Part shown: positions 5,542-43,368 of the stretch, piece by piece
Layout: every line of letters starts with the position of its first letter
How positions within the stretch are numbered: position 1 is the first letter of the stretch
Origin: an uncultured Poribacteria bacterium
GTDB taxonomy: Bacteria > Poribacteria > WGA-4E > WGA-3G
Length of the DNA stretch: 64,000 nucleotides
Reading direction: 5' to 3'
Assembly: GCA_951828515.1 (NCBI GenBank)
Contig: OX639992.1
Coordinates: forward strand, 1,826,008 to 1,890,007
Program-made: the position numbers and the translations under genes
The notes under the pieces: model-generated
Databases searched by the model: none
The model's input: the letters and a program-made list of their open reading frames with translations, nothing else
What the model was told of the DNA's origin: nothing

Positions 5542-7464
5542 CTATGGATAGAACTGATACATTGTGGTGTTCAGAAGGATGTTTAGGAGGCTCCATGTGC
5601 TTCCCATGAGGTAATCACCGAGAACTAATCCTAAGAAGAAGGGGATGGCGCGCCGATAACTCTGGATACCACCGTGTCGAAGGATAAGCCATTTCAATGT
5701 CAAGGCAATTAGCAACGGAATCCAGAGGTCGGACATTTCTTGGTTGCTCGCCATCACATAACCGAGTGGATGCAGGGGTAGCCAAAAGAATTTGACACGA
5801 AGATATGTAAGCACCATCATGACAGAAAAGCCAATACCCATAAATATTACGCCGAGCCAGTCTGTGCTGAGCGGATACGTAATCCAGTTCGTCAACCGTC
5901 CGAAGTATTCTCTCCCGTAACCGAGTGCCCACGGTCCAAAGTAGCCGGAATCCGCACCGAATTGGTAGTAGAGATGCAGTTGGACCCAAAAGGCGACAAG
6001 CCCTCCGAAAATAGTGGCAATAACAACTGTCAAGAGCATCCGGCGTTGGTTAATATTAGCGAGTTCAGCGATTTTAAACGCCTCCAATTGATGCGGCATC
6101 TGCTGCGGACGGTAATCTCGGTTGAAAAAGCAGACGGAGAGTGCCGTTAAGTTCTGAGCCCCAAGACGATGCGTCCCCAAAATAGTGTTTAAGATGTATC
6201 GCGGTGCCTGCCAGTGGTAGGCGTGGACAAAAATGCCGGACTCCGCTCGGATACGTGTTGTCACCAGCGGCGTTATGAGGAACAGAACAGCGAAAGTAAG
6301 CGCAAGCCAGACCGACATGCCCGCCTTGTAGAGGAGAAACGCAAACAACAGAATACCGAGTCCAAAGCCCCATACCGCCACCCGATACGGCATCGGTTCA
6401 TCGTGCTGTTCGGCGGGTGGCTCTCGTCCACGAGAGGGCAGCACACTTTTCAGAACGGCTTTGAAATGCCGTTTGCCCGTCCAACCAAAGAAAAAACAGA
6501 GCCCCACGAATGCTCCGATCGTCTGTTCGTTAAGATAGGGGAAACGCGGGATACTACTCCACCCAACGGCTTTTGCTAAAGCGACTTCGTTCCGATAGAG
6601 AAAATAGAAGAGGGTTGTCGAAAAGAGGACATCCAACGGCATGAGGAACATAATGCCGATAGCAAACGGATAAAAAGCCGTGATGATGGTGCCGTAGAGA
6701 CTCAAGGGTGGCTCCTGAAACGAGAAAAAACGGCGCGTCACCGGAATATGTGGAATCACGGGATAGAGATGGCTCAATCCATTGAAAAGACTGATACCCG
6801 CAGCAATCGCAAAGCCGATCCACATCCGTTTATTTCTGAAGAACGCAGAAGTAGGATTCGTCATTGCCAGTGGGAGTTGAATAATCGGGAAGGTAAGGCG
6901 TTCACGCTGTGCCCACTGCCGACGGAGGATCGTATTGAGGCAGAGAAAGATGAACGCTATCACTGTAAAGAGCAACAACCACGCCGCTACTACTGGTGCC
7001 CAAACCTGTAGATGCATCGGACGGTATAGACTTGACTCTCCTTGGTAGTAGCCCCGAAGTGCGTCTCTATCTGAAACCGTGAGCCATTGCGGGAGGTGGT
7101 GCCAAAATAGGGTGCGCCATTCGTTTTCTTCCGTTGCGAACCAGAAACTGTGTCCAAGTACAGAAAGAATCGCTTGCAGGACATCGCATCCAGCGAGCGT
7201 TGTGGCGAAACTGAGTGTCACGTAGAGAAGTAGTAGTTCACCTTGTCCAAGGGCAAAATCACTGTTTAGGAGACGGATGACCGCGTTAATTAGCATCACT
7301 GCGGTGAGGATGAAAATCACGTTGGAGAGTGGGACGACCCATGTCGGAAAGGTATAGCGCACGACTTCCATCTGGATAAGGAAGTAGCAGTTAATCGGTG
7401 CGGTAATCGCGAAGATACACAAGACGCGCCAGGTCAAGGCACGTTGCTGGGGGAGAGAAGTCAA
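5542..7464 (-). CDS. polytopic integral membrane protein, unknown function
   Basis: 640 aa with at least 14 predicted hydrophobic helices and no recognisable catalytic motif. Confidence 0.5.
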   Translation of the reverse strand: MTSLPQQRALTWRVLCIFAITAPINCYFLIQMEVVRYTFPTWVVPLSNVIFILTAVMLINAVIRLLNSDFALGQGELLLLYVTLSFATTLAGCDVLQAILSVLGHSFWFATEENEWRTLFWHHLPQWLTVSDRDALRGYYQGESSLYRPMHLQVWAPVVAAWLLLFTVIAFIFLCLNTILRRQWAQRERLTFPIIQLPLAMTNPTSAFFRNKRMWIGFAIAAGISLFNGLSHLYPVIPHIPVTRRFFSFQEPPLSLYGTIITAFYPFAIGIMFLMPLDVLFSTTLFYFLYRNEVALAKAVGWSSIPRFPYLNEQTIGAFVGLCFFFGWTGKRHFKAVLKSVLPSRGREPPAEQHDEPMPYRVAVWGFGLGILLFAFLLYKAGMSVWLALTFAVLFLITPLVTTRIRAESGIFVHAYHWQAPRYILNTILGTHRLGAQNLTALSVCFFNRDYRPQQMPHQLEAFKIAELANINQRRMLLTVVIATIFGGLVAFWVQLHLYYQFGADSGYFGPWALGYGREYFGRLTNWITYPLSTDWLGVIFMGIGFSVMMVLTYLRVKFFWLPLHPLGYVMASNQEMSDLWIPLLIALTLKWLILRHGGIQSYRRAIPFFLGLVLGDYLMGSTWSLLNILLNTTMYQFYP

Positions 7465-8021: not shown

Positions 8022-9293
8022 TTACCACTGACCATGCACAGGGGTCTCACGTGCTTTCTCGAAAAGATCTGCCCATTCGTCAGTGCCATCGTCAAAGTTT
8101 AATTCGAGACGCGCGCCATCCACCTGTGCCTCACCACCGCCTGCATTGAAATAACTCAAACCATCACCGGACATGTGGATGCAACTGCCATCAGGATAAA
8201 CAGCGGTTTTGATGATACGCGGGACAGGATGAATCGTATAACCGTCAGCGTCTAACTTATCAGCAGGTACACGGAAGCGTTCAACTGCGTCTTCATCGAC
8301 TTCAACGCCTAACCCAGGCGCATCGGCAATCTTGTGGCATCCATCCGAGACTTGTATGGGGTGCGTGAGCAGATGGTCGCTGTAGAGATTAATACAGGTG
8401 ATTGCGGGCCATGTCGCATGTGTGAGTACACTCCCGAGATGTCCTGCCCAGGTTGTCGTCAAGCCGTTTCCAACGATCTGGAGCCAAAACGGCATATCTG
8501 CTGCTGCGCTGAGTTGCCCCTCACGCATCACCTGCGATTTGCCACCACCGATGACAAACCCTGTGCATACGTCCTCACGCACACAAGTGGTATAGGGAGG
8601 TGACCCGAAATGCATGGCGACCTGACACCCAACGGCTTGACGAATCTGCTTGTTTCCGTCAACATCGCTCTGCGGGATGGGAGTCTCAAACATCGCCACG
8701 TTTGGATGTGCAGCGAGTTTTTTCAGGATCGGGATAGCCGTTTCTGCGTCGCGCCACGAACTGTTCGGATCGAGGTCGAGTTTGAAGTCGGCTGGTACGT
8801 TTTCTGAGACTGCCTCTACCTGTGCGGTGATATCCCACCACGGACGCGGTTTATTTTTGAAACTGGTATAGCCGTTTTCCACGGCGTTAGCGGCTTCTGC
8901 TGCCCAGTTTTCAGGGGAGGAGTCGATACACCACCACGAAATTGGAACAGCTTCGCGACACTGCATGCCAAGAAGTTGGTAGATTGGAATCTCTAAAATT
9001 TTTCCGACGACATCAAAGAGTGCCATCTGTAAACCGGCACCAAGCGAATCGTCGTTCATAAGTTCGGCGGGACTTTGTCCAAGCACACGTTCAGCACTGG
9101 TATCACTGACCCGGGAATAGGTATAGTGGATGACGGTCTCGCCCCAACCGATATGTCCAGTATCGGTTGTAACCTTGCACAATTCAAGAAGCGACCAGTT
9201 GTAAACTGTTGATACGCTCTGGGTGGTAATTTGTTGTTGGCGCGGGGTGAAGGGGACATCTACAATCACACGTTCTACGTTCGTGACTTTCAT
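8022..9293 (-). CDS. enolase-superfamily enzyme (mandelate racemase/muconate lactonizing enzyme-like dehydratase)
   Basis: N-terminal KVTNVERVIVDVPF capping-domain start typical of MR/MLE/galactonate dehydratases, followed by a TIM-barrel region. The ATG at 9293 has a TAAGGAG RBS; the 27 codons further upstream overlap a REP hairpin. Confidence 0.6.
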   Translation of the reverse strand: MKVTNVERVIVDVPFTPRQQQITTQSVSTVYNWSLLELCKVTTDTGHIGWGETVIHYTYSRVSDTSAERVLGQSPAELMNDDSLGAGLQMALFDVVGKILEIPIYQLLGMQCREAVPISWWCIDSSPENWAAEAANAVENGYTSFKNKPRPWWDITAQVEAVSENVPADFKLDLDPNSSWRDAETAIPILKKLAAHPNVAMFETPIPQSDVDGNKQIRQAVGCQVAMHFGSPPYTTCVREDVCTGFVIGGGKSQVMREGQLSAAADMPFWLQIVGNGLTTTWAGHLGSVLTHATWPAITCINLYSDHLLTHPIQVSDGCHKIADAPGLGVEVDEDAVERFRVPADKLDADGYTIHPVPRIIKTAVYPDGSCIHMSGDGLSYFNAGGGEAQVDGARLELNFDDGTDEWADLFEKARETPVHGQW

Positions 9294-9479: not shown

Positions 9480-10307
9480 CTAATACGCAACTTTAATTTC
9501 GCCCCAGAGGGTCGTGAGCTTGTCTTTGACATCGACATCAAAACCGTTTTTGTTTGTAACGAGAATGCTGTCGATCCGTCCCATTCCCCAACTTTCGTGC
9601 CAAACACCGACAGAACCGGCACCCTTGGTAGTGGCTTTGTCGGATTCAAGTATTGGGTCTCCGAGGTCATCGGAGGGTGCGAACAGGTCTTTGATTTCAT
9701 CAAGTTTCTTATACCAGACTTTAACGTTGTTGCCTTGGACCTCAACGCGTCCGAAATAAGCGACAGCATTGGTTTGATCGAGTCCAGCCCCTAAGCCGTG
9801 CGGTACACTGTCTATTTCCTTACCACCATTTTCACAACCGCACTGATCAAGGCATTGTCCGCTCGGACAACACCCGTCTTCCAGACTCATGAAAAGGACG
9901 GCCGCTGTCTCATTATAGCCAAAGACAACGAGATAGCCTTTATCGTCCCCTTTTCTACGGAATTGCAGACCGAAACTATCATCATCACCAAAGGAAAAGA
10001 CGGCTTGGACGATGCCGTCGGTAAAGTTTTTCACACCAGGCAGTTCTGTGTTACCAGAGATACCGCATCCCTCAGCGGTTTGCTTCATGGATCTTTTTCC
10101 ACCGATTTTGCCGCCTTCAAAATCATCCTCACCCCAGATGGTGCCCGCGTTTTCCGGTTTATAGTTTTTGACATTGTTCACATCAGCATTCGGTTTTGCG
10201 TCCTTGGAGCCGGGCTCAAAATCGGCGTAAAACACAACTTGACCGCTGGCGTGAAACGAAACAAGTAGACTCAAAACGAGGCTGAAAAGAAAAAAACGTG
10301 TCTTCAT
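9480..10307 (-). CDS. secreted hypothetical protein, paralog A (Cys-rich core DGCCPSGQCLDQCGCENGG)
   Basis: Signal peptide MKTRFFLFSLVLSLLVSFHASGQ. A GGAGGAG RBS precedes the ATG at 10307. It aligns over its full length with the adjacent paralog at 10564..11388. Confidence 0.55.
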   Translation of the reverse strand: MKTRFFLFSLVLSLLVSFHASGQVVFYADFEPGSKDAKPNADVNNVKNYKPENAGTIWGEDDFEGGKIGGKRSMKQTAEGCGISGNTELPGVKNFTDGIVQAVFSFGDDDSFGLQFRRKGDDKGYLVVFGYNETAAVLFMSLEDGCCPSGQCLDQCGCENGGKEIDSVPHGLGAGLDQTNAVAYFGRVEVQGNNVKVWYKKLDEIKDLFAPSDDLGDPILESDKATTKGAGSVGVWHESWGMGRIDSILVTNKNGFDVDVKDKLTTLWGEIKVAY

Positions 10308-10563
10308 GAATGTCTCCTCCGATTTCATAAAGAGTTGTGTTGCCGTTTATTCACAAGCAACAGCATGATGACAAGGCTATAGGCATCGCTTAGATACCCG
10401 TATCATCAAAGATGCCTTGTCTAAAACTAAAGTGGTGTTGGGTGAGGTACGGAGACCTCACCCGACAAAGATGAGTAGTGCAATGCAGAAAGACTGAGGT
10501 ATGGTAACCTCGCCCTGCAACGCCAGTTGATTCTATGCTATTTGTCTATATTAAGGCAGGAGA

Positions 10564-11388
10564 CTAATAGCTGCTTTTAACGTCGCCCCACGTCGTAGAG
10601 AGTTTGGCGTGCGGGTCGACATCAGTGGTGCCACCAGGACCGGTAACAAGGACGCTATCGACTCTTCCGTTGCCCCAACTTTCGTGCCAGATACCGACAG
10701 TACCGGGTCCCAAATCATCTGCGCCGTCATATTCAGCGACTGGATCGCCGAGTTCACTGGAGGCGGCGAAGAGATCGGACACATCGTCAAGTTCCATATA
10801 CCAGACCTGGATGAGACTTCCGATGACTTCAACGCGCGCAAAATAGGCGACGCTGTTGTCTTGTGAGAGATCTGCACCTAAGCCGTGGTCAACCCCGACG
10901 AGTTCATTCCCCCCATTTTCGCAGCTGCACTGGTCGAGACACTGCCCGGAAGGACAGCATCCATCTGCGAGGCTACCGATGATAATTTGGGGTGTTTCGT
11001 TATAGCCGAATCCGACGAGATAACCGCTGTCGTCTCCGACGCGCCGGAATTGGAAACCAACGCCATCATCGTCTTGCCATGAAAAAACGGCTTGGATGAT
11101 ACCGTCAGAGAAGCCATCGACACCGGGCAGCGGTGTATTACCGGAGATGCCACACCCTTCGGCAGATTGATGCAAGGCACCGCTGCCATCAGGAAATTCA
11201 TCTGACTCCACCCAAACGGTTCCAGCGTTTTCCGGCACCCAATTTGCTGGGTCGTTAACGCTGACATCCGGGATCGCTTTAGAGCCGCTTATTTCAAAAT
11301 CAGCATAGAAAATTACCTGTGCGCTGGCGTGGCCAATCAGTATAACTGAAAAAAGTGTGATGAGCACCATAAGGTGGGTTCTTGTCAT
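10564..11388 (-). CDS. secreted hypothetical protein, paralog B (Cys-rich core DGCCPSGQCLDQCSCENGG)
   Basis: Signal peptide plus full-length similarity to 9480..10307 (shared segments QVIFYADFE, AEGCGISGNT, GCCPSGQCLDQC, VAYF.RVEV, WHESWG). An AAGGAG RBS lies upstream of the ATG at 11388. Confidence 0.55.
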   Translation of the reverse strand: MTRTHLMVLITLFSVILIGHASAQVIFYADFEISGSKAIPDVSVNDPANWVPENAGTVWVESDEFPDGSGALHQSAEGCGISGNTPLPGVDGFSDGIIQAVFSWQDDDGVGFQFRRVGDDSGYLVGFGYNETPQIIIGSLADGCCPSGQCLDQCSCENGGNELVGVDHGLGADLSQDNSVAYFARVEVIGSLIQVWYMELDDVSDLFAASSELGDPVAEYDGADDLGPGTVGIWHESWGNGRVDSVLVTGPGGTTDVDPHAKLSTTWGDVKSSY

Positions 11389-11588
11389 TTTGTCACTCCT
11401 TTATTGGTTGAATTTCCACAAGTTAAGTAGTCTGCCTCAAAGTCAGTTTTGCCTGCTAAGGGCAGATTCTTATCAATAGGATGGTTTCTCGTGAAACCGA
11501 TACCTAAAATATAGCAAAAAAGCAAATTTCTGTCAAGAAAAGATAGAATTTTTATTTTTTGGGAGGCTTTGCCGTTGAAAGGGGAGGT

Positions 11589-11741: not shown

Positions 11742-12650
11742 CTAAAGACTGCTTGATTGCTTATAGTCTTTCAACCTATTTTGCAACGTCCGGACGCTAA
11801 TCTCCAATACTTCCGCGGTTTTCGTTCGATTTTCGTTCTGCCACGCCAAAGTGTCGAGGATAAAGGTTTCTTCCATAGTCTTAAGGCTTGCTCCGAGAGG
11901 AACAGACACAGTTTGTTGGTTTTCAGGTGTGTAATTTTCTTTTGGTATGTTAACTCGCGGTTGCCCAAATGCCAAAATTTCTTCAGGCAGATGCCCAGGT
12001 AACACAGCCTCTCCATCTGACAAGATAACTGCGTGGATTAAAGCGTTTTCTAACTCTCGTATATTCCCGGGCCAAGGGTAGTTTTGGAGACGTGCGAGCG
12101 TCTCTGGTACTATTTTACGCACTGGCTGCGCGTAGGTATTACAATGTTTCTCCACAAAGTATTCTGTCAACATGCGAATATCCTCTCGCCGCTCGCGTAA
12201 GGATGGTAAAGAAAGAGAAACAGCATTCAATCGATAGTAAAGGTCTTTGCGGAAAGTGCCATTATCAACAGCCTCCGAGAGGTTACAGTGCGTAGCCGCA
12301 ACGATTCGGACATCCACTGGAATCGGCTTTGTTCCGCCTAAGCGTTCAATCTCACCCGTCTCAACCGCCCGTAACAACTTCGCTTGTAGGGAAAGTGGCA
12401 TATCTCCAATTTCATCAAGGAAGAGTGTCCCGTTGTGTGCGCTTTCAAATTTGCCGATGTGTTGCGTTTTCGCGTCCGTAAATGCACCTCTTTCATGTCC
12501 AAACAATTGGCTCTCAAGCAGCATATCCGGAATTGCGGCACAGTTGACAGAAACCATTTTGTTCCCCGACCGATCACTGTTTTGGTGTAAGGCACGTGCT
12601 ATCAACGCGTTAGGATATTTATAAAGAGGTCTATTTACTCGTTGGGAAAC
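11742..12650 (-). pseudogene. sigma-54-dependent transcriptional activator fragment (AAA+ sigma-54 interaction domain C-terminal part plus Fis-type HTH); N-terminus missing
   Basis: It encodes ...ALIARALH...VNCAAIP...[10 protein letters not shown]...LLRAVE (ESFGHE-like GHERGAFT loop) plus a C-terminal HTH. The Walker A GESGTGKE and the receiver/sensor domain are absent. The frame opens only at a stop near 12654, inside the 3' end of the upstream gene, and the track start is a TTG. Confidence 0.55.
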
Positions 12651-14635
12651 CTCTTAGCGAGATACTTGGGGTTTGATCTGATGCTGGGTGGATAGCGGAT
12701 CTCCCATACCTTAACGAGTGCTTTCGCGAAATTGTTTGTGGGATAGATAGGTACAAATGCGCTGCTCGGCTCCCCACGCAGAAACGGAGCAGTAGTGGTT
12801 TCCTTTACGGTTAACATGAGATGGGTTGCCCTATGGGATCTCAGAAATTCTAATGCCTCGCGTTCGGTTTCAGCGAAGTTGATATGCTGTCGGTAGAGAG
12901 CTATCCAATGGGGTATGTAGTGGTCCTGATCAACAATGGTTTTGACCCCGGCGAGGACATTGAGTTGACTTCCATGATTCCAGTGCGCGGCAACAACAGC
13001 ATGCCCGGGTAGATTGCCTTTCATCCAATCAAACGCCTGCGCGAGGCTGCCTCTCCCCGGTATAGCCCTGCGAGATTTGATAGCGGCAGGTAGTGCCCGG
13101 TTTGCGTGCCCTCCGACAGGTGCATAGAACAGAATTAGGGTTAACATCAAGACAGGGATTGCTGTTCTTAATAGAAGCTGCGGGACACGGTGTTTCACTT
13201 TATTGGCATAGAAAGTGGCTAAGAACAAGAGGAGGTCTGCGGTAAAGAAGGCGATGGATATCCCGACAAAAAAATTGTAGCGTTTCGCATCCCGTGCCAG
13301 TGCTACCCAAAAGAGAAACCATAGGGTAAATGCAACATAGATGAATTCATTCTTAACAGCACTTCGTCGTCGCCAGGCAAGCACAAGGAATCCAATGACG
13401 CAGGTAGCAACCGCAATACCGAACTCAATATTAACAATGGATGTTCCCAAAAGCGGATCAAGCACACTGCGGTAAAAGGTTGTTCCCGTGAACAGGACCA
13501 GTGGTGCGGCGAACACCAGTCCTTGCCATTTCCAAAAGCGGAAGAGTGCCATAGCAATACCGAGACTCCCCAACACAAAAACACTACCGTAATGCGTCAT
13601 CCAATAGGCAAGAAAAGTGCTTTCCAGTTCCTCAATGCTTTGCATGAGTGCGCTTTGACTGAAAGGCACAGTGGTATCGGTAAGGGTTTTGGACTGCATG
13701 AGGATATAACCGAGTGCGAGCATGATGCTGGCAAGGGTTAATCCAAACGCAAGGGTGCGTGCGTGGAGACGAAGCCAATCAGCGAAAGGTCTCTTTGTGA
13801 TGAGAAGGTGGCGGAGGTAACGGATAACTAAAAGGGCGATCGGTGGGACAAGCATCAGGGCGGCGATGTGCGTTGAAAAGCCTTGCCCGCTTCGATACGC
13901 AGGAGATACAAGATACAGGGGTGGCACGAAGATGCAGACCCAGATGAGATATACCTCTAATCTGTCTTCTGTTTCGGAGGTGAGAAACCGCCATATCTCA
14001 ACCAATAGAATGATACTGAGAAAAACGCCGAAGCCTTCCCAACTGACACCCCCAAGGAACATAGCGAAACCACTCGCGAGTGTCCATAAAAGACACTTAC
14101 GTAGCTGTTGCGATTGCAATGAAGCGAGATAGGTTGTGACGGTGAGGATACCGAGCAGGAGGCACCAGCTGTCTCTATCTCCAAAACCGGCAGTGCTGCG
14201 GTTAATCGCGCCCGGGAGTGTTGCCAGAAGCACACCAACGATGCTTGAAAAGAGAATACCGAAAGTGCGATAAAAAAAGAGACAGAGCGCCCCAAGTCCA
14301 CTGCAGAACCAGACAACGGGTGTGTAGACAGTAACGTGATAGAGTGTAACCTTCGGGAATACCCACGCGATCCCTTTGTGAACGTAGGCGAGGACGTATC
14401 CGTAGAGATTGAGGGTTTGCGTTAAATCTCTACCGAGTGGCAGCCATCGGTTCATATCCCGTTCTGGCAACTTTCCGTTTTCGGAGATGAGCTGCGCCTG
14501 CCAGTAGTAGAAGTAACCATCTGATTCGGTTAGCTGTCCAGCGGGGACATTTGTGATTCCTTGCAGCCGAATGAAAGCGGCAAGGCATAGGATACCGACA
14601 ATCAGAAAGATCGCACTTAATTTTTGTATCTTCAT
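12635..14635 (-). CDS. STT3/AglB/PglB-type oligosaccharyltransferase-like GT-C membrane protein
   Basis: 666 aa polytopic protein. Its first external loop [12 protein letters not shown]....[14 protein letters not shown] parallels eukaryotic STT3 EFDPYFNYR...DDRAWYPLGR. A later [10 protein letters not shown] sits where WWDYG would be. Confidence 0.6.
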
Positions 14636-23986: not shown

Positions 23987-24988
23987 CTATGGTTGTTTTA
24001 GATATCCCCACGACGTTGTCAGCAAATGAACTTGTGGGTGTACAGGCAACGCTCGTGGATCAAACCAACTCCCGAGGCTATTCACCCCTTGATGTGTCAG
24101 TTGCTTTGTCGATCGACGTGTGATATCAACTCTGAAGAGGTGTCTCTGCTCGTCAACCTTCTTTTCATAGAGGAGTTCAGTGCCATCAGGGCTCCACAGA
24201 GGGTGTCTCGCATATCCACCCGCTCTGGAGACGATCCGTTTCCTCTGTGTCCCATCGGGTCTCATAATATGAATCGTGGCCATATCGACTCGATCCAGAA
24301 GCCATGGAGCATCGGAAAAGGCGATCCATTCCGCGTCTGGAGACCATGAAGGGTACTTGTGACGTAAATCACCCAGAGACACTTTCCTCCGGTTCTGCCC
24401 TTCTGGCGAGATGAAAATGAGGGGGTAGCCTTCTCTTTCTTGTTGTGCGAAATTCGCTGCTGCAAAAGAGAAAACGATTCTCTCACCTTCTGGGGACCAC
24501 GCAGGTTGCCCGCCAAACTCCCCTGCGATAGCAAGCGGTTTTTCGTTTTTTCCATCAATGTCAGCTATGTAAATTGCCTCATCATGGTATCGGAAGTAAA
24601 CAATCCCTTTGCCATCAGGGCTCCATGCCGGTGCTGATCTGTCCGCTGCACTTCTAAAAACTCGTTTTACATTCTGACCATCCGCATCCATAAGGAACAC
24701 ATCTCGCTGACCGTCTCGATGAGACACAAAGAGAATATGTTCCCCTGTCGGTGAAAAGACGGGGGCATAATCGCGAGACAAGTGTTGTGTCAATTGGGTC
24801 ACTTCACTGCCATCGGGGTTCATGAGATAGATGTCCAGATTCCCTGTTATATCGGAGGCGAAGACAATCTTCGCTGTTTTCGGGGCTTTTGCCCAAGTCA
24901 GATCCAAAACACTGAAAAAAAACGATACGCAGAAAACGTAGAACATCAAAAGGGTAGGTTTCTTCATAAGTTTCTTTTCTGATAGCAA
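23987..24988 (-). CDS. TolB-like periplasmic beta-propeller protein
   Basis: Signal peptide, then repeated PxWSPDG blades (APVFSPTGEH, APAWSPDGKG, QPAWSPEGER, YPSWSPDAEW, HPLWSPDGTE). Start is either a TTG at 24988 with an AGGAG RBS or the ATG at 24967. Confidence 0.7.
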   Translation of the reverse strand: MLSEKKLMKKPTLLMFYVFCVSFFFSVLDLTWAKAPKTAKIVFASDITGNLDIYLMNPDGSEVTQLTQHLSRDYAPVFSPTGEHILFVSHRDGQRDVFLMDADGQNVKRVFRSAADRSAPAWSPDGKGIVYFRYHDEAIYIADIDGKNEKPLAIAGEFGGQPAWSPEGERIVFSFAAANFAQQEREGYPLIFISPEGQNRRKVSLGDLRHKYPSWSPDAEWIAFSDAPWLLDRVDMATIHIMRPDGTQRKRIVSRAGGYARHPLWSPDGTELLYEKKVDEQRHLFRVDITRRSTKQLTHQGVNSLGSWFDPRALPVHPQVHLLTTSWGYLKQP

Positions 24989-27216: not shown

Positions 27217-28926
27217 TCACGCTGTCGCTTGAATAAAGCCGTAGCATCTCGCAAGTATCGCCTTCGCGGTATCCTCATCTTCAATGAGTTCACTAAGTAT
27301 TGTTTCCACTTCCCTGACGGTATGTTCTTTGAGAAGGCTAATAACCAATCCGTCCTCAACTTTCTGGTTAAAAATTCCGTAGGGATTTACAAGCATTTCA
27401 TATCGCGAATTCATATTGAGTACTATGGACTTCTGTTCTAACCGTTTCTGATGGGTGTTCCAATAAGATGAAAAAAAAGTGTTGAGTCGATTTTCACAGA
27501 ACAATTTCTTTTTCCAATTGAGTTCCGAGAACAAGTCAAGGATACGTTGCGCTGTTTTCTTCCAAGTGAACGTTTGTGCGCGATTCAGTGCCTTTTGAGC
27601 GTAGGCTGCTCGTAGGGAATTGTCGTTTAGCAACAGATTTACCCCTTCCGAGAAGTCAAGTGGAGAAGCATAACTGGCAATGCTCGTGATGTCCTGTTCA
27701 AAGGGAACGGTAGGAACGATCAAACCCGCATCTCCCACGACAGAAGGAACACCATCAAAATCGGAGATGACCGGTGGTACACCGCACGCCATTGCTTCAA
27801 GCACTGTTAATCCGAATGTCTCCTCGCCAGACACGGAAGGGAAACAATATACATCAAAGGCGTTGTAAATCAGCGGTAATTTTTCACGATCATAGAATCC
27901 GATATAGATAAGGTTCTCGGGAATTTTTCGCTGTGCGTATCTACCCTCATTCTGACCCGCCTGCAAAAAGAGAAGATGTGGGTTGAGTTCTGCCAACTTC
28001 AGGTAGATAGATGCCCCCTTTTCAGGTTGGAAACGAGAGAGGTAACCCACGGTGGGCATTGTTTTAATTCGTTCATCTCCTACGCGTTTCGCGAGTTCAT
28101 TCTTTGCCTGTTGTTTATCCATTGGACGGAATAAGTTTAAATCTACACCATTTGCGACAGTATTGAAAACACCTTTATCCCAGACGAACTGGGAATAAAA
28201 TTCGCCAACAGAATCTGTAGGTGCCGTGAAGGCATCATAATCCCGTAGAGCAGTATAGTGTAACAATACAGAACGCACGTTTGTACCACCATGTCCACCC
28301 ACCGAATGCACTTGCATTAGAATCGGAGGGAGTTCGGGACATCGGAATAGTGGGATGAATCCTTCTTGGCTACGGTCAGAGTGGATTGTAAGGATACCTT
28401 CATATTGCGAAGCAATCTTTTCGGGTATACGCACCATGTCGAGCAGACTCAAATCCACTTCGTAGAAATTCTCGCCAAGTTTTCTGTTTTGTGTGCCAGC
28501 AAAGTGAAGTACTGCCTGGTCTTTCAGAGCCTGAATAGTATAAGCGAGAGCAACATGGGTCCCAGCACTGGTATTTTCTATGTCTGAAACAGCATCGGGA
28601 GCCAACCCCTGGACCACCAATAAAAAATGTGGACAATCTCCTTTTTTGAAAAATAATACGTCGGATTTCTCACCACGATTAAGGAGTAAACCCCGTCCCA
28701 CATATTCGATCAATGTCTCAAATGCTTCTTCAATATCACCATCACTGTAAGCGGTTTTTAATGTCTCTATAATTTCCTCTGTCGTCCGTGTCTCCGCGAG
28801 TTTCAGAACATCAGCAATCGCAGCAGAGATTTCGACGAGACTTGCTTTATCCAAGTCTGCGGCGTAAAGTCCACCATCTTTTTCAAAAATATGGAGTTGA
28901 TGAAGAGGTTTCGGAAAATCAAGCAT
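27217..28926 (-). CDS. GT4-family (GT-B) glycosyltransferase with N-terminal PqqD/RRE-like domain (paralog)
   Basis: PSVSGEETFGLTVLEAMACGVPPVISD is the GT4 motif. N-terminal LYAADLDKASLVEISAAIADVLKLAE.RTTEEIIETLKTAYSDGDIEEAFETLIEYVGRGLL is PqqD-like. Start uncertain (ATG at 28926 or TTG at 28950). Only 10 bp separate it from the downstream paralog. Confidence 0.7.
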   Translation of the reverse strand: MLDFPKPLHQLHIFEKDGGLYAADLDKASLVEISAAIADVLKLAETRTTEEIIETLKTAYSDGDIEEAFETLIEYVGRGLLLNRGEKSDVLFFKKGDCPHFLLVVQGLAPDAVSDIENTSAGTHVALAYTIQALKDQAVLHFAGTQNRKLGENFYEVDLSLLDMVRIPEKIASQYEGILTIHSDRSQEGFIPLFRCPELPPILMQVHSVGGHGGTNVRSVLLHYTALRDYDAFTAPTDSVGEFYSQFVWDKGVFNTVANGVDLNLFRPMDKQQAKNELAKRVGDERIKTMPTVGYLSRFQPEKGASIYLKLAELNPHLLFLQAGQNEGRYAQRKIPENLIYIGFYDREKLPLIYNAFDVYCFPSVSGEETFGLTVLEAMACGVPPVISDFDGVPSVVGDAGLIVPTVPFEQDITSIASYASPLDFSEGVNLLLNDNSLRAAYAQKALNRAQTFTWKKTAQRILDLFSELNWKKKLFCENRLNTFFSSYWNTHQKRLEQKSIVLNMNSRYEMLVNPYGIFNQKVEDGLVISLLKEHTVREVETILSELIEDEDTAKAILARCYGFIQATA

Positions 28927-29273
28927 ATTTTTTGTCTCTATATACAACAAACTGAATCAACACATTATTTTATTTCAACTCGAAGAATGCCAATTCTTGA
29001 AATAATGCTCTGTTACAACGACAGATATCTCTAACGAATTTTTTACGTATCACTCAGCATTCTCTATGTTGCAATTCCCGTGCCAATTGGAAGAACCCAC
29101 GCCGTTCGTGAATTTTAGGAAAATGGGACTACGCAAATTTTTCGCAGTCGGCAAATTTTGCATACCGAATCTCTGCAGATATTGCAGAGTTCCAAAAGGC
29201 AGTGGCACCGGCGCGCGATATATCGGGGACGAACACTATGGTAAACTTTAGAATTAACTGTACACTCTGCACC

Positions 29274-37637: not shown

Positions 37638-40430
37638 ATGTCAATTTCAAATAGTAAACAGTATTTCTGGTACATTGCCGCCATTTTATTTAGCATTGCA
37701 TCAGTGATACCAACGGCTGTCAGTGCAGACACACTCTCAGTCGTTGTTCAAGATCAGAATGGAAATGCTATATCAGAAGCAAAAGTACAAATTGGAAACC
37801 AAGAACAAACAACTGACGAATCAGGAACTGCCACGTTTAGCGATGTCACAGACGCACAGTCAGTGACTGTAATAGCAATCGGATTTTCGAGTAAACGCAT
37901 TAATACCACTGCCGGACAAACTGAAGCAATAGTCAATCTTGCTCCGATTCAAACGATTGAATCCGTTGTAGTCGTCGGGACCCGGAGTATAGGTAGGCGA
38001 GCTTTACAAGCCTCCGTTCCAATAGAAGTCGTTAACAGGGAACAACTCAGCCTTACCGGTCAATCTGAGACAGGGCGTGTGCTTCAGATGTTAGTCCCCT
38101 CCTTCAATTTCTCAAGTTCAAGCATTAGCGATGGCACAGATGCCCTGCGTCCAGCAACACTGCGTGGCTTGGGACCTGACCAGACGCTTGTGCTTGTCAA
38201 TGGTAAGCGTCGTCACAAAAGTGCGTTGTTGCACGTTAACACGTCGGTAGGACGTGGGACCGCTGGAACGGACTTCAATGCGATTCCATCCGCGGCGATA
38301 GAGCGTATTGAGGTACTTCGGGATGGCGCGGCGGCACAGTACGGCTCCGATGCTATCGCTGGTGTTATCAACATCGTGCTAAAAGATGACGTTGACACAG
38401 GCGATGCCGACATCTATTGGGGACAAACATACGAAGGCGATGGCGACACATGGAACGGTAACGCCAACTACGGCATGAAAGTCGGCGAATCCGGTTTCCT
38501 CAATCTCACCGCTGAATGGCGCGATAGAAAACGGACGAACCAGGCAGGTCTTACGGGCGAACGGCAGTATGACTGGATAGATGTCGACCAAGGCAGACCT
38601 CCGGATAAAATGCTTGAAATTGAAAATGATGATGGAACTGTAACCGAAAAACCGGTATGGTTTGACCCGCGCGAATACACTTTTGAACGGCAGAACTTCC
38701 GCATTGGAGATGCCGACTCTTCACAAAAAATTGGATTTTATAATTTTGGACTTCCACTCGCCGCGGGTTTAGAACTCTATTCTTTTGGTGGGCACTCTTC
38801 ACGCCAAAACAACAGTGCCGGTTTTTACCGCCGAGCCAACCAAGCATCACGGACTGTCACCGAAATCTATCCCGACGGGTTCCTACCGGAAATCAATACC
38901 GACGTTGGGGACACATCCATTGCCTTAGGTATAGCATGGACGCATGAAGCGACCGACCTGAATGTCGATGCCAGTATCAATCACGGCTTGAATACATTCG
39001 ACTTTTTGATTTCTAACTCACTGAATGCCTCCTATGGTGCGAGCAGTCCGACCTCCGCGGATGCGGGTGGATTTGAGCTTTCGCAAACGGTGTTTAACTT
39101 AGATGTCACCTATCCACTGGACTACCAATCCTCACTGATGAACCTCGCAGGCGGTGTCGAGTTCCGTCGAGAAGGTTACGGCATCCACGCTGGCGAACCG
39201 CTTTCATGGATTAACGCTGGACTTGGGGCACCGGGTGCCACTGGCGGTATCCAAGTATTCCCCGGTTTCCGACCCGATAACGAATTGGACGAAAGTCGAA
39301 CCAATATTGCAGGTTATGCTGATTTTGAATCCTATCTCAGTGGACAACCCGGAGCAGGTCTTCTTGTCGGGGCAGCGGTGCGCGGTGAGCAGTATAGCGA
39401 CTTCGGTACCACCGTCACAGGAAAAGCGACGGCTCGCTATGACTTGACGAAACAGATTGCGGTTCGTGCGGCGGGCAGCACAGGTTTCCGGGCACCTTCA
39501 CTGCATCAACTCTACTTCAATAACATCAGTACGCAATTCTTGGTAGATGCGACGGATCTTGATGGTGACGGCGATACAACCGAAGTGTTACCACGCGAAC
39601 TCGGCACGTTCCGTAACGACAGCGATGCTGCACGTGCACTCGGGATACCTGAACTCAAAGAGGAAACCGCATTTAACGTCTCCGGTGGTTTCGTGTTGAA
39701 ACCGCTTGAGAAGATGTGGCTCACAGTAGACGGTTTTCTCATCCAAATTGATGATCGCATCGTTCTGAGTGGTAGTTTCAGTGCCGATAAAATTCCAAGC
39801 CTCATCGCGGCAGGGGCAAGCAGCGCACAGGTGTTCACAAACGTCGCACAGACACGCACCCAAGGCGTGGATGTCGCAGCGGGTTATCTCCACGCTTTCG
39901 ACGATGAATCGCTTCTTAATCTGAAGGTTGCGTTCACATGGGCAGATACCGAAGTTATCGGTGCCGTGGATGCGCCAGAAATCCTCATCGGGCTTGAGGA
40001 GACCCTCTTCCCTTCACAGGATCGCTCCATGATTGAGGAGTGGCAGCCGAACACCCGAATCAACTTCAGTGCAGATTACATCATCGGCGATCTCACCATC
40101 GGTGGTGCTTTGCGCTACTTCGGGAGTTACACCGTCCAAGAGGGAAGTGGTGCCGATCCGGCACGGCAGACTTACGGCGGGAAATGGCTTACCGATGTCC
40201 AGAGCAACTATCAACTCAATGAAGGGCTTTCATTGACTATCGGCGTGAACAACTTATTTGACCAACTGCCCGATCTCAATGAAATCGGTCAGTCGCGGGC
40301 TGGAACATTAGAGGATAGCACAGGACATGTCATTGTGGACTCGCCTGGCGTTTTCACGTATTCCAGAAGGTCGGCACCTTTCGGTTTCAATGGCGGACTT
40401 TACTACGCGAAACTATCCTATAGTTTCTAA
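37638..40430 (+). CDS. TonB-dependent outer-membrane receptor with N-terminal carboxypeptidase-regulatory-like domain
   Basis: Signal peptide, then a CarbopepD_reg-like stretch (VVVQDQNGNAISEAKVQIGNQEQTTDESGTATF). Plug region with TonB box. C-terminal barrel ends YYAKLSYSF (terminal Phe). Confidence 0.85.
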   Translation: MSISNSKQYFWYIAAILFSIASVIPTAVSADTLSVVVQDQNGNAISEAKVQIGNQEQTTDESGTATFSDVTDAQSVTVIAIGFSSKRINTTAGQTEAIVNLAPIQTIESVVVVGTRSIGRRALQASVPIEVVNREQLSLTGQSETGRVLQMLVPSFNFSSSSISDGTDALRPATLRGLGPDQTLVLVNGKRRHKSALLHVNTSVGRGTAGTDFNAIPSAAIERIEVLRDGAAAQYGSDAIAGVINIVLKDDVDTGDADIYWGQTYEGDGDTWNGNANYGMKVGESGFLNLTAEWRDRKRTNQAGLTGERQYDWIDVDQGRPPDKMLEIENDDGTVTEKPVWFDPREYTFERQNFRIGDADSSQKIGFYNFGLPLAAGLELYSFGGHSSRQNNSAGFYRRANQASRTVTEIYPDGFLPEINTDVGDTSIALGIAWTHEATDLNVDASINHGLNTFDFLISNSLNASYGASSPTSADAGGFELSQTVFNLDVTYPLDYQSSLMNLAGGVEFRREGYGIHAGEPLSWINAGLGAPGATGGIQVFPGFRPDNELDESRTNIAGYADFESYLSGQPGAGLLVGAAVRGEQYSDFGTTVTGKATARYDLTKQIAVRAAGSTGFRAPSLHQLYFNNISTQFLVDATDLDGDGDTTEVLPRELGTFRNDSDAARALGIPELKEETAFNVSGGFVLKPLEKMWLTVDGFLIQIDDRIVLSGSFSADKIPSLIAAGASSAQVFTNVAQTRTQGVDVAAGYLHAFDDESLLNLKVAFTWADTEVIGAVDAPEILIGLEETLFPSQDRSMIEEWQPNTRINFSADYIIGDLTIGGALRYFGSYTVQEGSGADPARQTYGGKWLTDVQSNYQLNEGLSLTIGVNNLFDQLPDLNEIGQSRAGTLEDSTGHVIVDSPGVFTYSRRSAPFGFNGGLYYAKLSYSF

Positions 40431-40569: not shown

Positions 40570-43368
40570 ATGTTAATTTTAAGCAATATACGTTACTTCT
40601 GGCACATCGCCATCATTTTATTCGGCATCACATTGATGATACCGATGGCAGCCAATGCCGATATACTTAAAGTAGTCGTTCAAGATCAAAATCGGAAGGC
40701 TGTTCCAGAAGCAAAAATTCAGGTTGGCAATCAAGAACAAACAACAGATGACTTTGGGACCGCCACTTTTAGCGATATAGCAGATGCAGAATCGCTAACT
40801 GTAACAGCAATTGGATTTCTGAAAAAACGAATTAATATCATTTCGGGGCAAACCGAGACCACAGTAATACTGGCTCCCATCCAAACGATTGAATCTGTTG
40901 TAGTCGTTGGAACTCGGAGTATGAGCAGACGAGCTCTGCAGGCTCCTGTCCCGATAGAAGTCGTTAACAGGGAACAACTCAACCTTACGGGTCAATCTGA
41001 AACGGGTCGTGTGCTTCAGATGTTAGTACCCTCCTTCAACTTCCCAAGTTCAACCATTAGTGATGGCACTGACGCGTTGAGACCCGCGACTTTGCGGGGT
41101 TTGGGACCTGATCAGGTGTTGGTACTGATCAATGGTAAACGTCGCCACAAAAGTGCGTTACTTCACGTAAACAGTTCGGTCGGTCGTGGCACTGCCGGCA
41201 CAGACTTCAACGCGATTCCTGCCGCGGCGATAGAACGTATTGAAGTACTCCGAGATGGTGCAGCGGCACAGTACGGCTCCGATGCCATCGCTGGTGTTAT
41301 CAACATTGTGCTGAAGAACGATGTCGATAAAGGCGATGCTAACATTTATTGGGGACAAACTTATGAAGGTGACGGAGATACGTGGAGTGGAAATGTGAGC
41401 TACGGAACGAAAGTAGGAGATTCCGGCTTTCTCAACTTAACAGCGGAATGGCGTGAACGTTATCGGGCAAATCGCGCTGGACTCACCGGGACGCGACAAT
41501 ACGATTGGGTAGAAGCGAATCAAGGCAGAGCACCTGATGCTATACTTGAGGTAAAGGATACAAATGGTAATGTGACAGGTGAAAAACGGGTCTGGTTTGC
41601 CCCACGCGAATATCATTTCAATCGGAAAAATCTCCGGGTCGGGGATTCTGACGCCTCACAAAAGGTTGGGGTTTACAATTTTGGCTTGCCGCTGACGGAA
41701 GGATTAGAGTTATATTCATTCGGTGGTTATTCCACGCGCCAAAACAACAGCTCAGGTTTTTATCGCAATGCCAAAGATGTTAGCCGTAACGTGAAAGCGA
41801 TCTATCCAGATGGTTTTCTCCCCGAAATTAACACAATGATTGAAGATGTATCCATTGCTTTGGGAATGGCTTGGAACCACACCTCAACAGATTTGAATGT
41901 TGATGTCAGTATCAATCACGGTCTGAATACGTTTGACTTTTTCGTTTCTAACTCTCTGAATGCATCCTATGGGGCTGCGAGTCCAACTGTCGCTGATTCC
42001 GGTGGCTTTCGACTCGATCAAACCGCTTTTAATGTAGATGCCACCTATCCGCTTATGTATCAGTCTTCACTGGTGAACCTCGCAGGGGGTGTCGAACTCC
42101 GTAGGGAAGGCTACGGTATTCGAGCGGGTGAACCTGTTTCTTGGCTCAACGCAGGTCTCGGTGCAGAAGGTGCCGCTGGCGGTATTCAGGTATTTCCCGG
42201 CTTCCGACCGGACAATGAAGTCGACGAAAGCCGAACCAATATTGCAGGCTATGCGGACTTCGAATCCTACTTAAGTGGCCAACCCGGAACAGGTCTTCTC
42301 GTCGGTGCTGCAGTGCGTGGGGAACAGTATAGCGATTTCGGTGCAACTGTCACAGGCAAAGCGACAACCCGCTACGAGCTGACAGAACAGGTTGCGGTCC
42401 GCGCTGCAGGTAGCACAGGTTTCCGAGCCCCTCTACTCCAACAACTCTATTTTAACAACATTAGCACACAATTCAAGGCGGACAATAACGATGCTGACGG
42501 CGATGGGGACACAACAGAACTACTGCCTTTCGAGATAGGGACATTTCGGAATGATAGTGCCACGGCGCGCACGCTCAACATTCCAGAGCTCAAAGAGGAA
42601 ACCTCCGTCAATGTTTCAGGCGGCATTGTGGTCAAACCCATTCAAAATCTATGGCTGACGCTTGATGCCTTTCAGATTCATATTGATGATCGGATTGTGC
42701 TGAGTGGAAGTTTCAAGGCTGATGCTGTCCCTGTCTTAGCACAAGCGGGTGTTAACCAAGCACAAGTCTTTACAAATGTCGGACAAACACGCACCCGTGG
42801 TATCGACATAGCTGCAGGTTACCTACATGCTTTCGACAACGAATCCATCCTGAATTTCAAGTTCGCGGCAACGTGGACGGACACTGAAGTTATTGGCGAT
42901 GTGGAAGTTCCCGGTCCTATTCTGATTGGCTTTGAGGAAATCCTTTTTCCGGAACGAGAACGCTCCATCATTGAGGAATGGCAACCGAACACGCGCATAA
43001 ATTTCACAGCAGATTATATTATTGGTCCCCTCAAGCTTGGATCTGCTTTACGCTACTTCGGAAGTTACACCGTTCAAGAAGGAAGCGGAGAGAGTGCGCA
43101 GCGACAAACCTATAGTGGAAAATGGCTCACTGATATCCAAGGGATATATCAACTCAGCAACTCTTTAGCACTGACGTTAGGGATAAACAATTTTCTTAGT
43201 CAACTACCTGACCTGAATGAGGTGGGACAAGCGCGTGGTGGCACCCTCATAGATAGTACTGGAACAGTTATTGCGGATTCACCAGGCGTTTTCACGTATG
43301 ACCGTAGGGCTGTCCCTTTCGGTTTTAACGGTGGATTTTACTACGCGAAGGTATCCTACAGTTTTTAA
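40570..43368 (+). CDS. TonB-dependent outer-membrane receptor (tandem paralog of 37638..40430)
   Basis: About 70% identical along its length to the upstream receptor, with the same domain order. It ends YYAKVSYSF. Confidence 0.85.
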   Translation: MLILSNIRYFWHIAIILFGITLMIPMAANADILKVVVQDQNRKAVPEAKIQVGNQEQTTDDFGTATFSDIADAESLTVTAIGFLKKRINIISGQTETTVILAPIQTIESVVVVGTRSMSRRALQAPVPIEVVNREQLNLTGQSETGRVLQMLVPSFNFPSSTISDGTDALRPATLRGLGPDQVLVLINGKRRHKSALLHVNSSVGRGTAGTDFNAIPAAAIERIEVLRDGAAAQYGSDAIAGVINIVLKNDVDKGDANIYWGQTYEGDGDTWSGNVSYGTKVGDSGFLNLTAEWRERYRANRAGLTGTRQYDWVEANQGRAPDAILEVKDTNGNVTGEKRVWFAPREYHFNRKNLRVGDSDASQKVGVYNFGLPLTEGLELYSFGGYSTRQNNSSGFYRNAKDVSRNVKAIYPDGFLPEINTMIEDVSIALGMAWNHTSTDLNVDVSINHGLNTFDFFVSNSLNASYGAASPTVADSGGFRLDQTAFNVDATYPLMYQSSLVNLAGGVELRREGYGIRAGEPVSWLNAGLGAEGAAGGIQVFPGFRPDNEVDESRTNIAGYADFESYLSGQPGTGLLVGAAVRGEQYSDFGATVTGKATTRYELTEQVAVRAAGSTGFRAPLLQQLYFNNISTQFKADNNDADGDGDTTELLPFEIGTFRNDSATARTLNIPELKEETSVNVSGGIVVKPIQNLWLTLDAFQIHIDDRIVLSGSFKADAVPVLAQAGVNQAQVFTNVGQTRTRGIDIAAGYLHAFDNESILNFKFAATWTDTEVIGDVEVPGPILIGFEEILFPERERSIIEEWQPNTRINFTADYIIGPLKLGSALRYFGSYTVQEGSGESAQRQTYSGKWLTDIQGIYQLSNSLALTLGINNFLSQLPDLNEVGQARGGTLIDSTGTVIADSPGVFTYDRRAVPFGFNGGFYYAKVSYSF

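Follow-up and report, generated by a model that had tools for sequence, protein, structure and literature searches.

Tandem exported beta-sandwich proteins with a putatively disulfide-stapled loop and a portable C-terminal tail in Poribacteria

Known chiefly through genome sequences, the uncultured Poribacteria are abundant sponge symbionts whose exported and surface proteins are central to their use of host and seawater glycans. A 64,000-nucleotide stretch of DNA from an uncultured member of this lineage (GCA_951828515.1, contig OX639992.1, positions 1,826,008 to 1,890,007; hereafter the window) encodes two adjacent proteins, A and B, which share a dense cysteine cluster and raise the question of which family they represent, what the cluster does and what role the pair might play outside the cytoplasm. 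A first-pass annotation made from the sequence alone had described them as ~275-residue signal-peptide paralogs with ~50% identity and variable acidic stretches, in which an invariant cysteine core was suggested to form a structural disulfide knot or a metal site within a probable jelly-roll scaffold. This overall interpretation proved essentially right, with several corrections detailed below. The genes and their export signals are located as follows:

10564..11388, minus strand: paralogue A, 274 residues, exported, predicted ConA-like and DUF1080-related protein
9480..10307, minus strand: paralogue B, 275 residues; listed open reading frame (ORF) 9480-10328, start revised to the ATG at 10307
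11320..11388, minus strand: signal peptide of A, residues 1-23, cleavage between HASA and QVIF predicted by eye
10242..10307, minus strand: signal peptide of B, residues 1-22, cleavage between HASG and QVVF

A and B are co-directional and align over their full length with 57% identity (BLASTP, E 5e-116), so that the proposed paralogy stands with a corrected figure. The true start of B is almost certainly the ATG at 10307 and not 10328, because a GGAGGAG ribosome-binding site precedes it, the resulting N-terminus (MKTRFF...) is that of all orthologues and the length of 275 residues agrees with an independent ENA gene call. Both N-termini are Sec-type signal peptides with a hydrophobic h-region and an AxA-type cleavage site, which are conserved in all homologues. 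At the level of codon substitution, dN/dS values of 0.06-0.19 among orthologues, for A and B alike, show that both are real functional genes under purifying selection. The description of variable acidic stretches was only roughly right, as acidity runs throughout both proteins. Mature A has a net charge of ~-33 (pI ~4.05) and mature B of ~-15 (pI ~4.5) across 49 genomes, and A is the most acidic protein of the window (-12 per 100 residues vs a mean of -2.8, standard deviation 3.3). The divergent tandems likewise begin with a more acidic copy (-12 to -28) and end with a less acidic one (+2 to -11), a recurring asymmetry which suggests that the tandem copies may be specialised or act as a pair.

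Neither A nor B matches any Pfam or NCBIfam model, even at E<=10, and no meaningful match was found among PDB sequences. A search of 5.8 billion proteins recovered 196 clusters at E<=0.001, all unnamed or annotated as 'hypothetical', and the taxonomically named ones belong to Candidatus Poribacteria; an exhaustive hidden Markov model (HMM) search of 1.84 billion 50%-identity representatives yielded only 70 clusters. A survey of 185,579 species genomes gave 64 loci, all of them poribacterial, and the nearest public locus, 98% identical, is likewise from Candidatus Poribacteria. Because A is followed by B in 48 of the 49 core-clade loci whose length allows a call, and more divergent genomes carry two to three tandem copies or up to four copies within 20 kb, the A/B duplication is old and stable; genome expansion of the copies, which the first-pass annotation had proposed to check, is modest. 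Mean identity is 83% among A orthologues and 80% among B orthologues, and the two clades share 99 fixed columns with only nine fixed differences between them. Six positions alone are invariant once divergent members are included (P88, D108, R115, G229, W267 and K271). The divergent members found by the exhaustive search keep an N-terminal F.ADF motif, the EGC and QC cysteines and a characteristic C-terminal tail. A profile search from the most divergent clade (A4) returned 31 proteins, all inside the family, and a bridging search seeded with P0170 found no match but itself. Longer proteins combine the domain with Big_5, dockerin, F5/8-C and LRR/cohesin/LamG modules. In the divergent loci L052-L055 (e.g. 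L053, 9011-9826 and 9980-10789), the tandem combines acidic upstream copies containing four cysteines with a less acidic downstream copy containing six, the latter being near neutral in L052-L054 and at -11 in L055. Family genes of the L059-L064 lineage lie beside LamG genes that carry the tail and beside a family member with a dockerin.

A was modelled with AlphaFold2 from an alignment of 32 sequences, which gave an all-beta sandwich with a mean predicted local distance difference test (pLDDT) of 76 and a predicted template modelling score of 0.79; its weak parts are the cysteine loop (pLDDT ~61-62) and the last ~20 residues (<50). The closest structural neighbours of this model are lectins and carbohydrate-binding modules (CBMs), and Foldseek against the PDB placed it in the same fold class with modest template modelling scores of 0.3-0.5; judged by these scores, no solved structure is close to the modelled protein. 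The predicted two-sheet jelly roll can be superposed on lectins and glucanases, as is characteristic of the ConA-like lectin/glucanase fold, and agrees with the scaffold suggested by the first-pass annotation. Identity to L-type and galectin-like lectins and to CBM66 (ERGIC-53, VIP36, YesU/DUF1961) is 9-14%, with no detectable sequence homology, and A and B differ from these proteins in their loops and disulfide pattern. None of 24 family members matched PF13385 (Laminin_G_3) at E<=1, though other tail-bearing proteins do, and the GH16 catalytic motif E-[ILV]-D-[IVAF]-[VILMF](0,1)-E is absent.

The nearest sequence family is reached through homologues only. The core of the family aligns over its full length with the most divergent clade (hhalign 99.9%, E 2e-36), and P0178 of this clade scores 27.1 bits on PF06439 (3-keto-disaccharide hydrolase, DUF1080), covering profile positions 12-186 of 187 and exceeding the gathering threshold of 26.8 bits; the link is therefore transitive. 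PF06439 was matched by three of 24 diverse homologues, of which P0178 alone lies above the threshold (P0170, 23.5 bits; P0162, 17.2 bits). The best PDB sequence match of a broad family profile (A2) was the DUF1080 protein BT3469 (4jqt, E 0.009). Searches of PDB sequences with A4 and P0178 gave only a spurious T-cell receptor match, and the sole DUF1080 candidate from a motif scan of Poribacteria DNA turned out to be a DNA methylase. Compared with BT2157, AL2 and BT3469 (PDB 4jqt), A and B add a putative triple-disulfide loop, an N-terminal FYADFE motif and a TTWGxIK tail, carry a DDD motif where DUF1080 has NSG and are extremely acidic. The family thus appears to be a divergent, Pfam-unrecognised branch next to DUF1080 rather than a demonstrated member of it, and the absence of an obvious family assignment noted earlier holds for A and B themselves. 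A confident assignment to a well-known family such as DUF1080 or a glycoside hydrolase with the cysteine cluster as a known feature, which had been named as the outcome that would speak against the first interpretation, was not obtained; both proteins fall below detection by PF06439 and lack the GH16 motif. The former 'hypothetical proteins' now make up a defined family, with fold and export signal assigned, a map of disulfides predicted and a remote link to DUF1080.

The cysteines from which this disulfide map derives are located as follows:

10909..10959, minus strand: cysteine cluster of A, CCPSGQCLDQCSCENGG, residues 144-160 (C144, C145, C150, C154, C156)
9822..9872, minus strand: cysteine cluster of B, CCPSGQCLDQCGCENGG, residues 146-162 (C146, C147, C152, C156, C158)
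11152..11154, minus strand: C79 of A (EGCG motif), predicted disulfide partner of C150
10065..10067, minus strand: C81 of B, counterpart of C79 in A

The cluster, CCPSGQCLDQC(S/G)CENGG, is alike in A and B except for the one S/G position, and a sixth invariant cysteine (C79 in A, C81 in B) had been missed. The claimed invariance holds between the two paralogs and breaks down across the family. When 277 unique near-full-length sequences were aligned to the family HMM, all six cysteines (C79, C144, C145, C150, C154 and C156) were present in 214, four (C79, C144, C150 and C156) in 25, two (C79 and C150) in 19 and none in 15; three of the remaining four reflect local alignment shifts, and P0152 keeps C144 and C156 only. 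Cysteines are hence gained or lost as the pairs C79+C150, C144+C156 and C145+C154. Because this loss is pairwise and nested, the number of cysteines is even and the protein is exported, three disulfides connecting exactly these pairs are most likely. C79-C150 would be the ancestral bond that tethers the loop to the sandwich, and C144-C156 and C145-C154 would form a ladder closing the loop, with C145-C154 specific to the six-cysteine clade. On this pattern, the cluster is best regarded as a clade-specific structural staple and not as a family-wide functional core. It would thus represent an accessory stabilising device gained stepwise (from zero to two, four and six cysteines) and a clean natural case of disulfide accretion in an extracytoplasmic domain.

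Of the two roles suggested for the cluster by the first-pass annotation, the disulfides fit this pattern and the metal site does not. The dense spacing and vicinal CC of CCxxxxCxxxCxC resemble some metal-binding motifs, and the low confidence of the loop in the model could mean that a cofactor is missing. However, metal ligands should be conserved all together, and the even-numbered cysteines of these exported proteins vanish in defined pairs across the 277 sequences. In addition, the homologues with four (25), two (19) or zero (15) cysteines retain the remaining domain and tail, and C79 of the two-cysteine pair is 65-71 residues away from the cluster. A Zn, Cu or Fe-S site in place of disulfides is therefore very unlikely.

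A second feature that had gone unnoticed is a tail of ~20 residues, AV.P..KL.TTWG.[ILV]K plus two to three residues, which terminates A, B and an unrelated exported protein of the window:

10567..10623, minus strand: C-terminal tail of A, DVDPHAKLSTTWGDVKSSY, candidate sorting tag with invariant W267 and K271
9483..9539, minus strand: C-terminal tail of B, DVDVKDKLTTLWGEIKVAY
23987..24988, minus strand: PD40/TolB-like beta-propeller, exported, unrelated to A and B, ending in ...PVHPQVHLLTTSWGYLKQP (tail at nucleotides 23990-24046)

W267 and K271, two of the six family-wide invariant residues, lie within the last eight residues, where pLDDT is <50. Shuffling predicts 0.027 chance matches to the tail among the 125 ORFs of the window. 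In 1.2 Mb of Poribacteria DNA, a biased sample since it flanks family genes, the tail was found on 31 non-family ORFs (~0.4 expected by chance), besides 126 family ORFs detected by the family HMM. These non-family carriers include PD40 propellers, Kelch propellers, F5/8-type-C and Laminin_G_3 proteins, share the consensus [AV]V.P.[GA]KL[TA]TTWG.[LI]K followed by two to three residues, and contain an N-terminal hydrophobic export segment in 30 of 31 cases, the exception being cut off at the locus edge. The tail is a portable module that occurs across at least five domain families in Poribacteria. Conserved tail positions use six Leu, four Thr and four Gly codons; because synonymous codons vary so freely, selection acts on the tail peptide and not on a DNA repeat, and the same diversity rules out an origin from a DNA repeat or miniature inverted-repeat transposable element. 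P0125 and P0138 have gained a dockerin behind the domain, with the tail located at the new C-terminus. Long multidomain proteins in which the domain is N-terminal lack the tail.

No NCBIfam sorting-domain model matches the tail, and a literature search returned nothing on the cysteine motif, the tail, DUF6785/6784 or Poribacteria lectin-like proteins. We infer that the tail is a candidate sorting or attachment tag, apparently undescribed. Like the C-terminal domain (CTD) of the type IX secretion system (T9SS), PEP-CTERM, LPXTG and GlyGly-CTERM, it is a C-terminal module combined with an N-terminal Sec signal on unrelated exported proteins of one lineage. In contrast to PEP-CTERM, LPXTG and GlyGly-CTERM, which consist of a motif, a transmembrane helix and a basic cluster, it stops two to four residues past the conserved Lys and lacks a hydrophobic stretch, and unlike the T9SS CTD (TIGR04183/TIGR04131), a beta-sandwich of 70-100 residues, it comprises only ~20 residues that are unstructured in the model. 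No dedicated sorting enzyme was identified for the tail. The tail might serve as a terminal strand, a protease or quality-control tag or an oligomerisation peptide, or be a motif that recombination has spread and that has no shared function, as would agree with the missing machinery, the lack of a transmembrane segment, basic cluster or domain-sized fold, and the variable last two to three residues. We consider such a non-sorting role unlikely: five or more unrelated folds carry the tail, invariably at the very C-terminal end and in nearly every case with an export signal at the N-terminus; its conservation exceeds that of the preceding domains, selection acts on it as a peptide and, in the two dockerin-containing proteins, it has moved to the new end. 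If it is a sorting signal, the surface proteome of this lineage could be read from sequence, and the tail would point to a previously unrecognised secretion or anchoring machinery. The tail is the most novel element of the locus and the one most worth following up, whereas the fold and the general logic were already known and no major paradigm is changed.

Taken together, we hypothesize that A and B form an ancient, stably kept tandem of Sec-exported, strongly acidic ConA-like beta-sandwich proteins in a Poribacteria-restricted branch whose nearest sequence family is DUF1080/PF06439. Three disulfides would tie a long loop to the domain body and stabilise the proteins outside the cytoplasm, with the loop placed like the 'finger' loop that flanks the ligand channel in DUF1080/GH16-type sandwiches. 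The tail would direct such exported binding-type domains to a common destination, for example by surface attachment or by passage through the outer membrane. There A and B, possibly as a pair, may recognise carbohydrates in a Ca2+-dependent, lectin-like manner, in a lineage that specialises in using complex glycans. We hold this explanation as a whole with about as much conviction as doubt, its structural parts being much firmer than its functional ones. Two genes are conserved downstream of the pair:

8022..9293, minus strand: enolase-superfamily (MR/MLE) gene directly downstream of B, recognised by Pfam and NCBIfam, collinear in 47 loci
5542..7464, minus strand: DUF6785/DUF6784 polytopic membrane protein (E 1e-151) with at least ten transmembrane segments, two genes downstream of the pair, collinear in 49 loci

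The order A, B, enolase superfamily and DUF6785/6784 is collinear in all core-clade genomes, and the genes upstream vary. Other neighbours include an HpcH-type aldolase, a sulfatase, PhyH, SDRs and a second MR_MLE enzyme, a repertoire typical of glycan and sugar-acid catabolic regions; a BolA-like protein was also identified. Alternatively, A and B might be periplasmic DUF1080-type 3-keto-glycoside 1,2-lyases/hydratases like BT2157 and AL2. The disulfide loop would then give the catalytic channel its shape, and a pathway of the neighbouring enolase-superfamily dehydratase and HpcH aldolase would take up the products. BT2157 and AL2 are likewise exported, Ca2+-dependent jelly rolls with finger loops (10.1101/2024.03.25.586180; PMC8121099), and the conserved channel residues of BT2157 are E103, N134, E164, Q166, Y190, K245, Q273 and H275 (10.1101/2024.03.25.586180). 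The remote PF06439 link, 4jqt as best PDB sequence match, the many invariant polar residues of the core clade and the sugar-acid enzymes adjoining the pair in all core genomes, with the further MR_MLE enzyme near the divergent tandem in L053, would all fit such an activity. However, the Gfo/Idh/MocA oxidoreductase and sugar-phosphate-isomerase-like lyase partners that accompany characterised members are absent among the identified neighbours, and A and B score nothing on PF06439. In the weak 4jqt alignment (E 0.009), Ser/Gly replaces the Asn of NSG and the cysteine loop falls on the E-x-Q...Y segment of the DUF1080 active site. Furthermore, WHESW, NET and H168 are not conserved in divergent clades, and the closest structural neighbours are lectins and CBMs. 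This enzymatic role, the main competitor of the lectin-like one, is accordingly rather unlikely.

Several observations weigh against the lectin-like, tail-sorted explanation. The invariant polar residues DDD, NET, H168 and WHESW would be as compatible with catalysis as with a sugar or Ca2+ site, and synteny with cytoplasmic enzymes would not specify a ligand. A and B do not match PF06439 even at E<=10, and the DUF1080 link is borderline. The cysteine loop is modelled with moderate confidence only, the tail census was drawn from a biased sample, and the tail bears none of the hallmarks of known sorting signals and has no machinery identified for it.

The conserved DUF6785/6784 protein is a candidate transporter or machinery component. 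It recurs beside family genes in three lineages that differ in gene arrangement: in addition to the core clade, paralogues with ~36% identity occur near family genes in L052 (1478-3415) and L059 (6989-8974), and none was found near them in L053, L054 and L063. A single-sequence AlphaFold2 model of the protein was unusable (pLDDT 45). It is conceivable, if doubtful, that the tail is an undescribed sorting or attachment signal without a transmembrane segment in a Poribacteria-specific pathway that brings this family, PD40 and Kelch propellers, discoidin and LamG proteins to the cell surface. DUF6785/6784 would then belong to the machinery that recognises, processes or transports these proteins, with A and B as the most conserved cargo.

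Upstream of and between the two genes, the following features were identified:

11508..11536, minus strand: putative sigma-70-type promoter TTGACA-17-TATATT with TG extension, 11/12 matches, ~120 nucleotides upstream of A
10440-10463, minus strand: inverted repeat GGGTGAGGT-ctccgt-ACCTCACCC with a 9-bp stem and no T-run, in the 256-nucleotide A-B spacer
11742-12605, minus strand: sigma-54 activator ORF, a variable upstream neighbour whose listed start corresponds to AAA+ profile position 37
12635-14635, minus strand: 666-residue membrane protein with weak STT3-like similarity (TIGR04154, 52.8 bits vs a cutoff of 450)

The inverted repeat may act as a terminator, attenuator or processing site, and the length of the A-B spacer ranges from 83 to 1570 nucleotides across genomes. 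No Rfam family matched anywhere in the window. Control of A and B by sigma-54 was rejected, as no -24/-12 site lies upstream and two apparent matches are WHESW codons. The ENA gene call for the sigma-54 activator is longer (377 residues) and places its true start upstream of the first listed start codon. The only zero-mismatch sigma-54 site of the window, a perfect -24/-12 consensus TGGCACGGGAATTGCA at 29070-29085 on the minus strand, is located ~120 nucleotides upstream of a 577-residue ORF (27217-28950). The STT3-like protein is found upstream of the pair in ~12 genomes, and TIGR04154 is a model for STT3/archaeosortase-associated oligosaccharyltransferases; an N-glycosylation role of the invariant NET, formally an N-x-T sequon, was rejected since conservation of the Asn is confined to the core clade. 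Elsewhere in the window, two adjacent, acidic and cysteine-free ORFs of 930 and 932 residues on the plus strand (37638-40430 and 40570-43368) may represent another tandem pair of paralogues.

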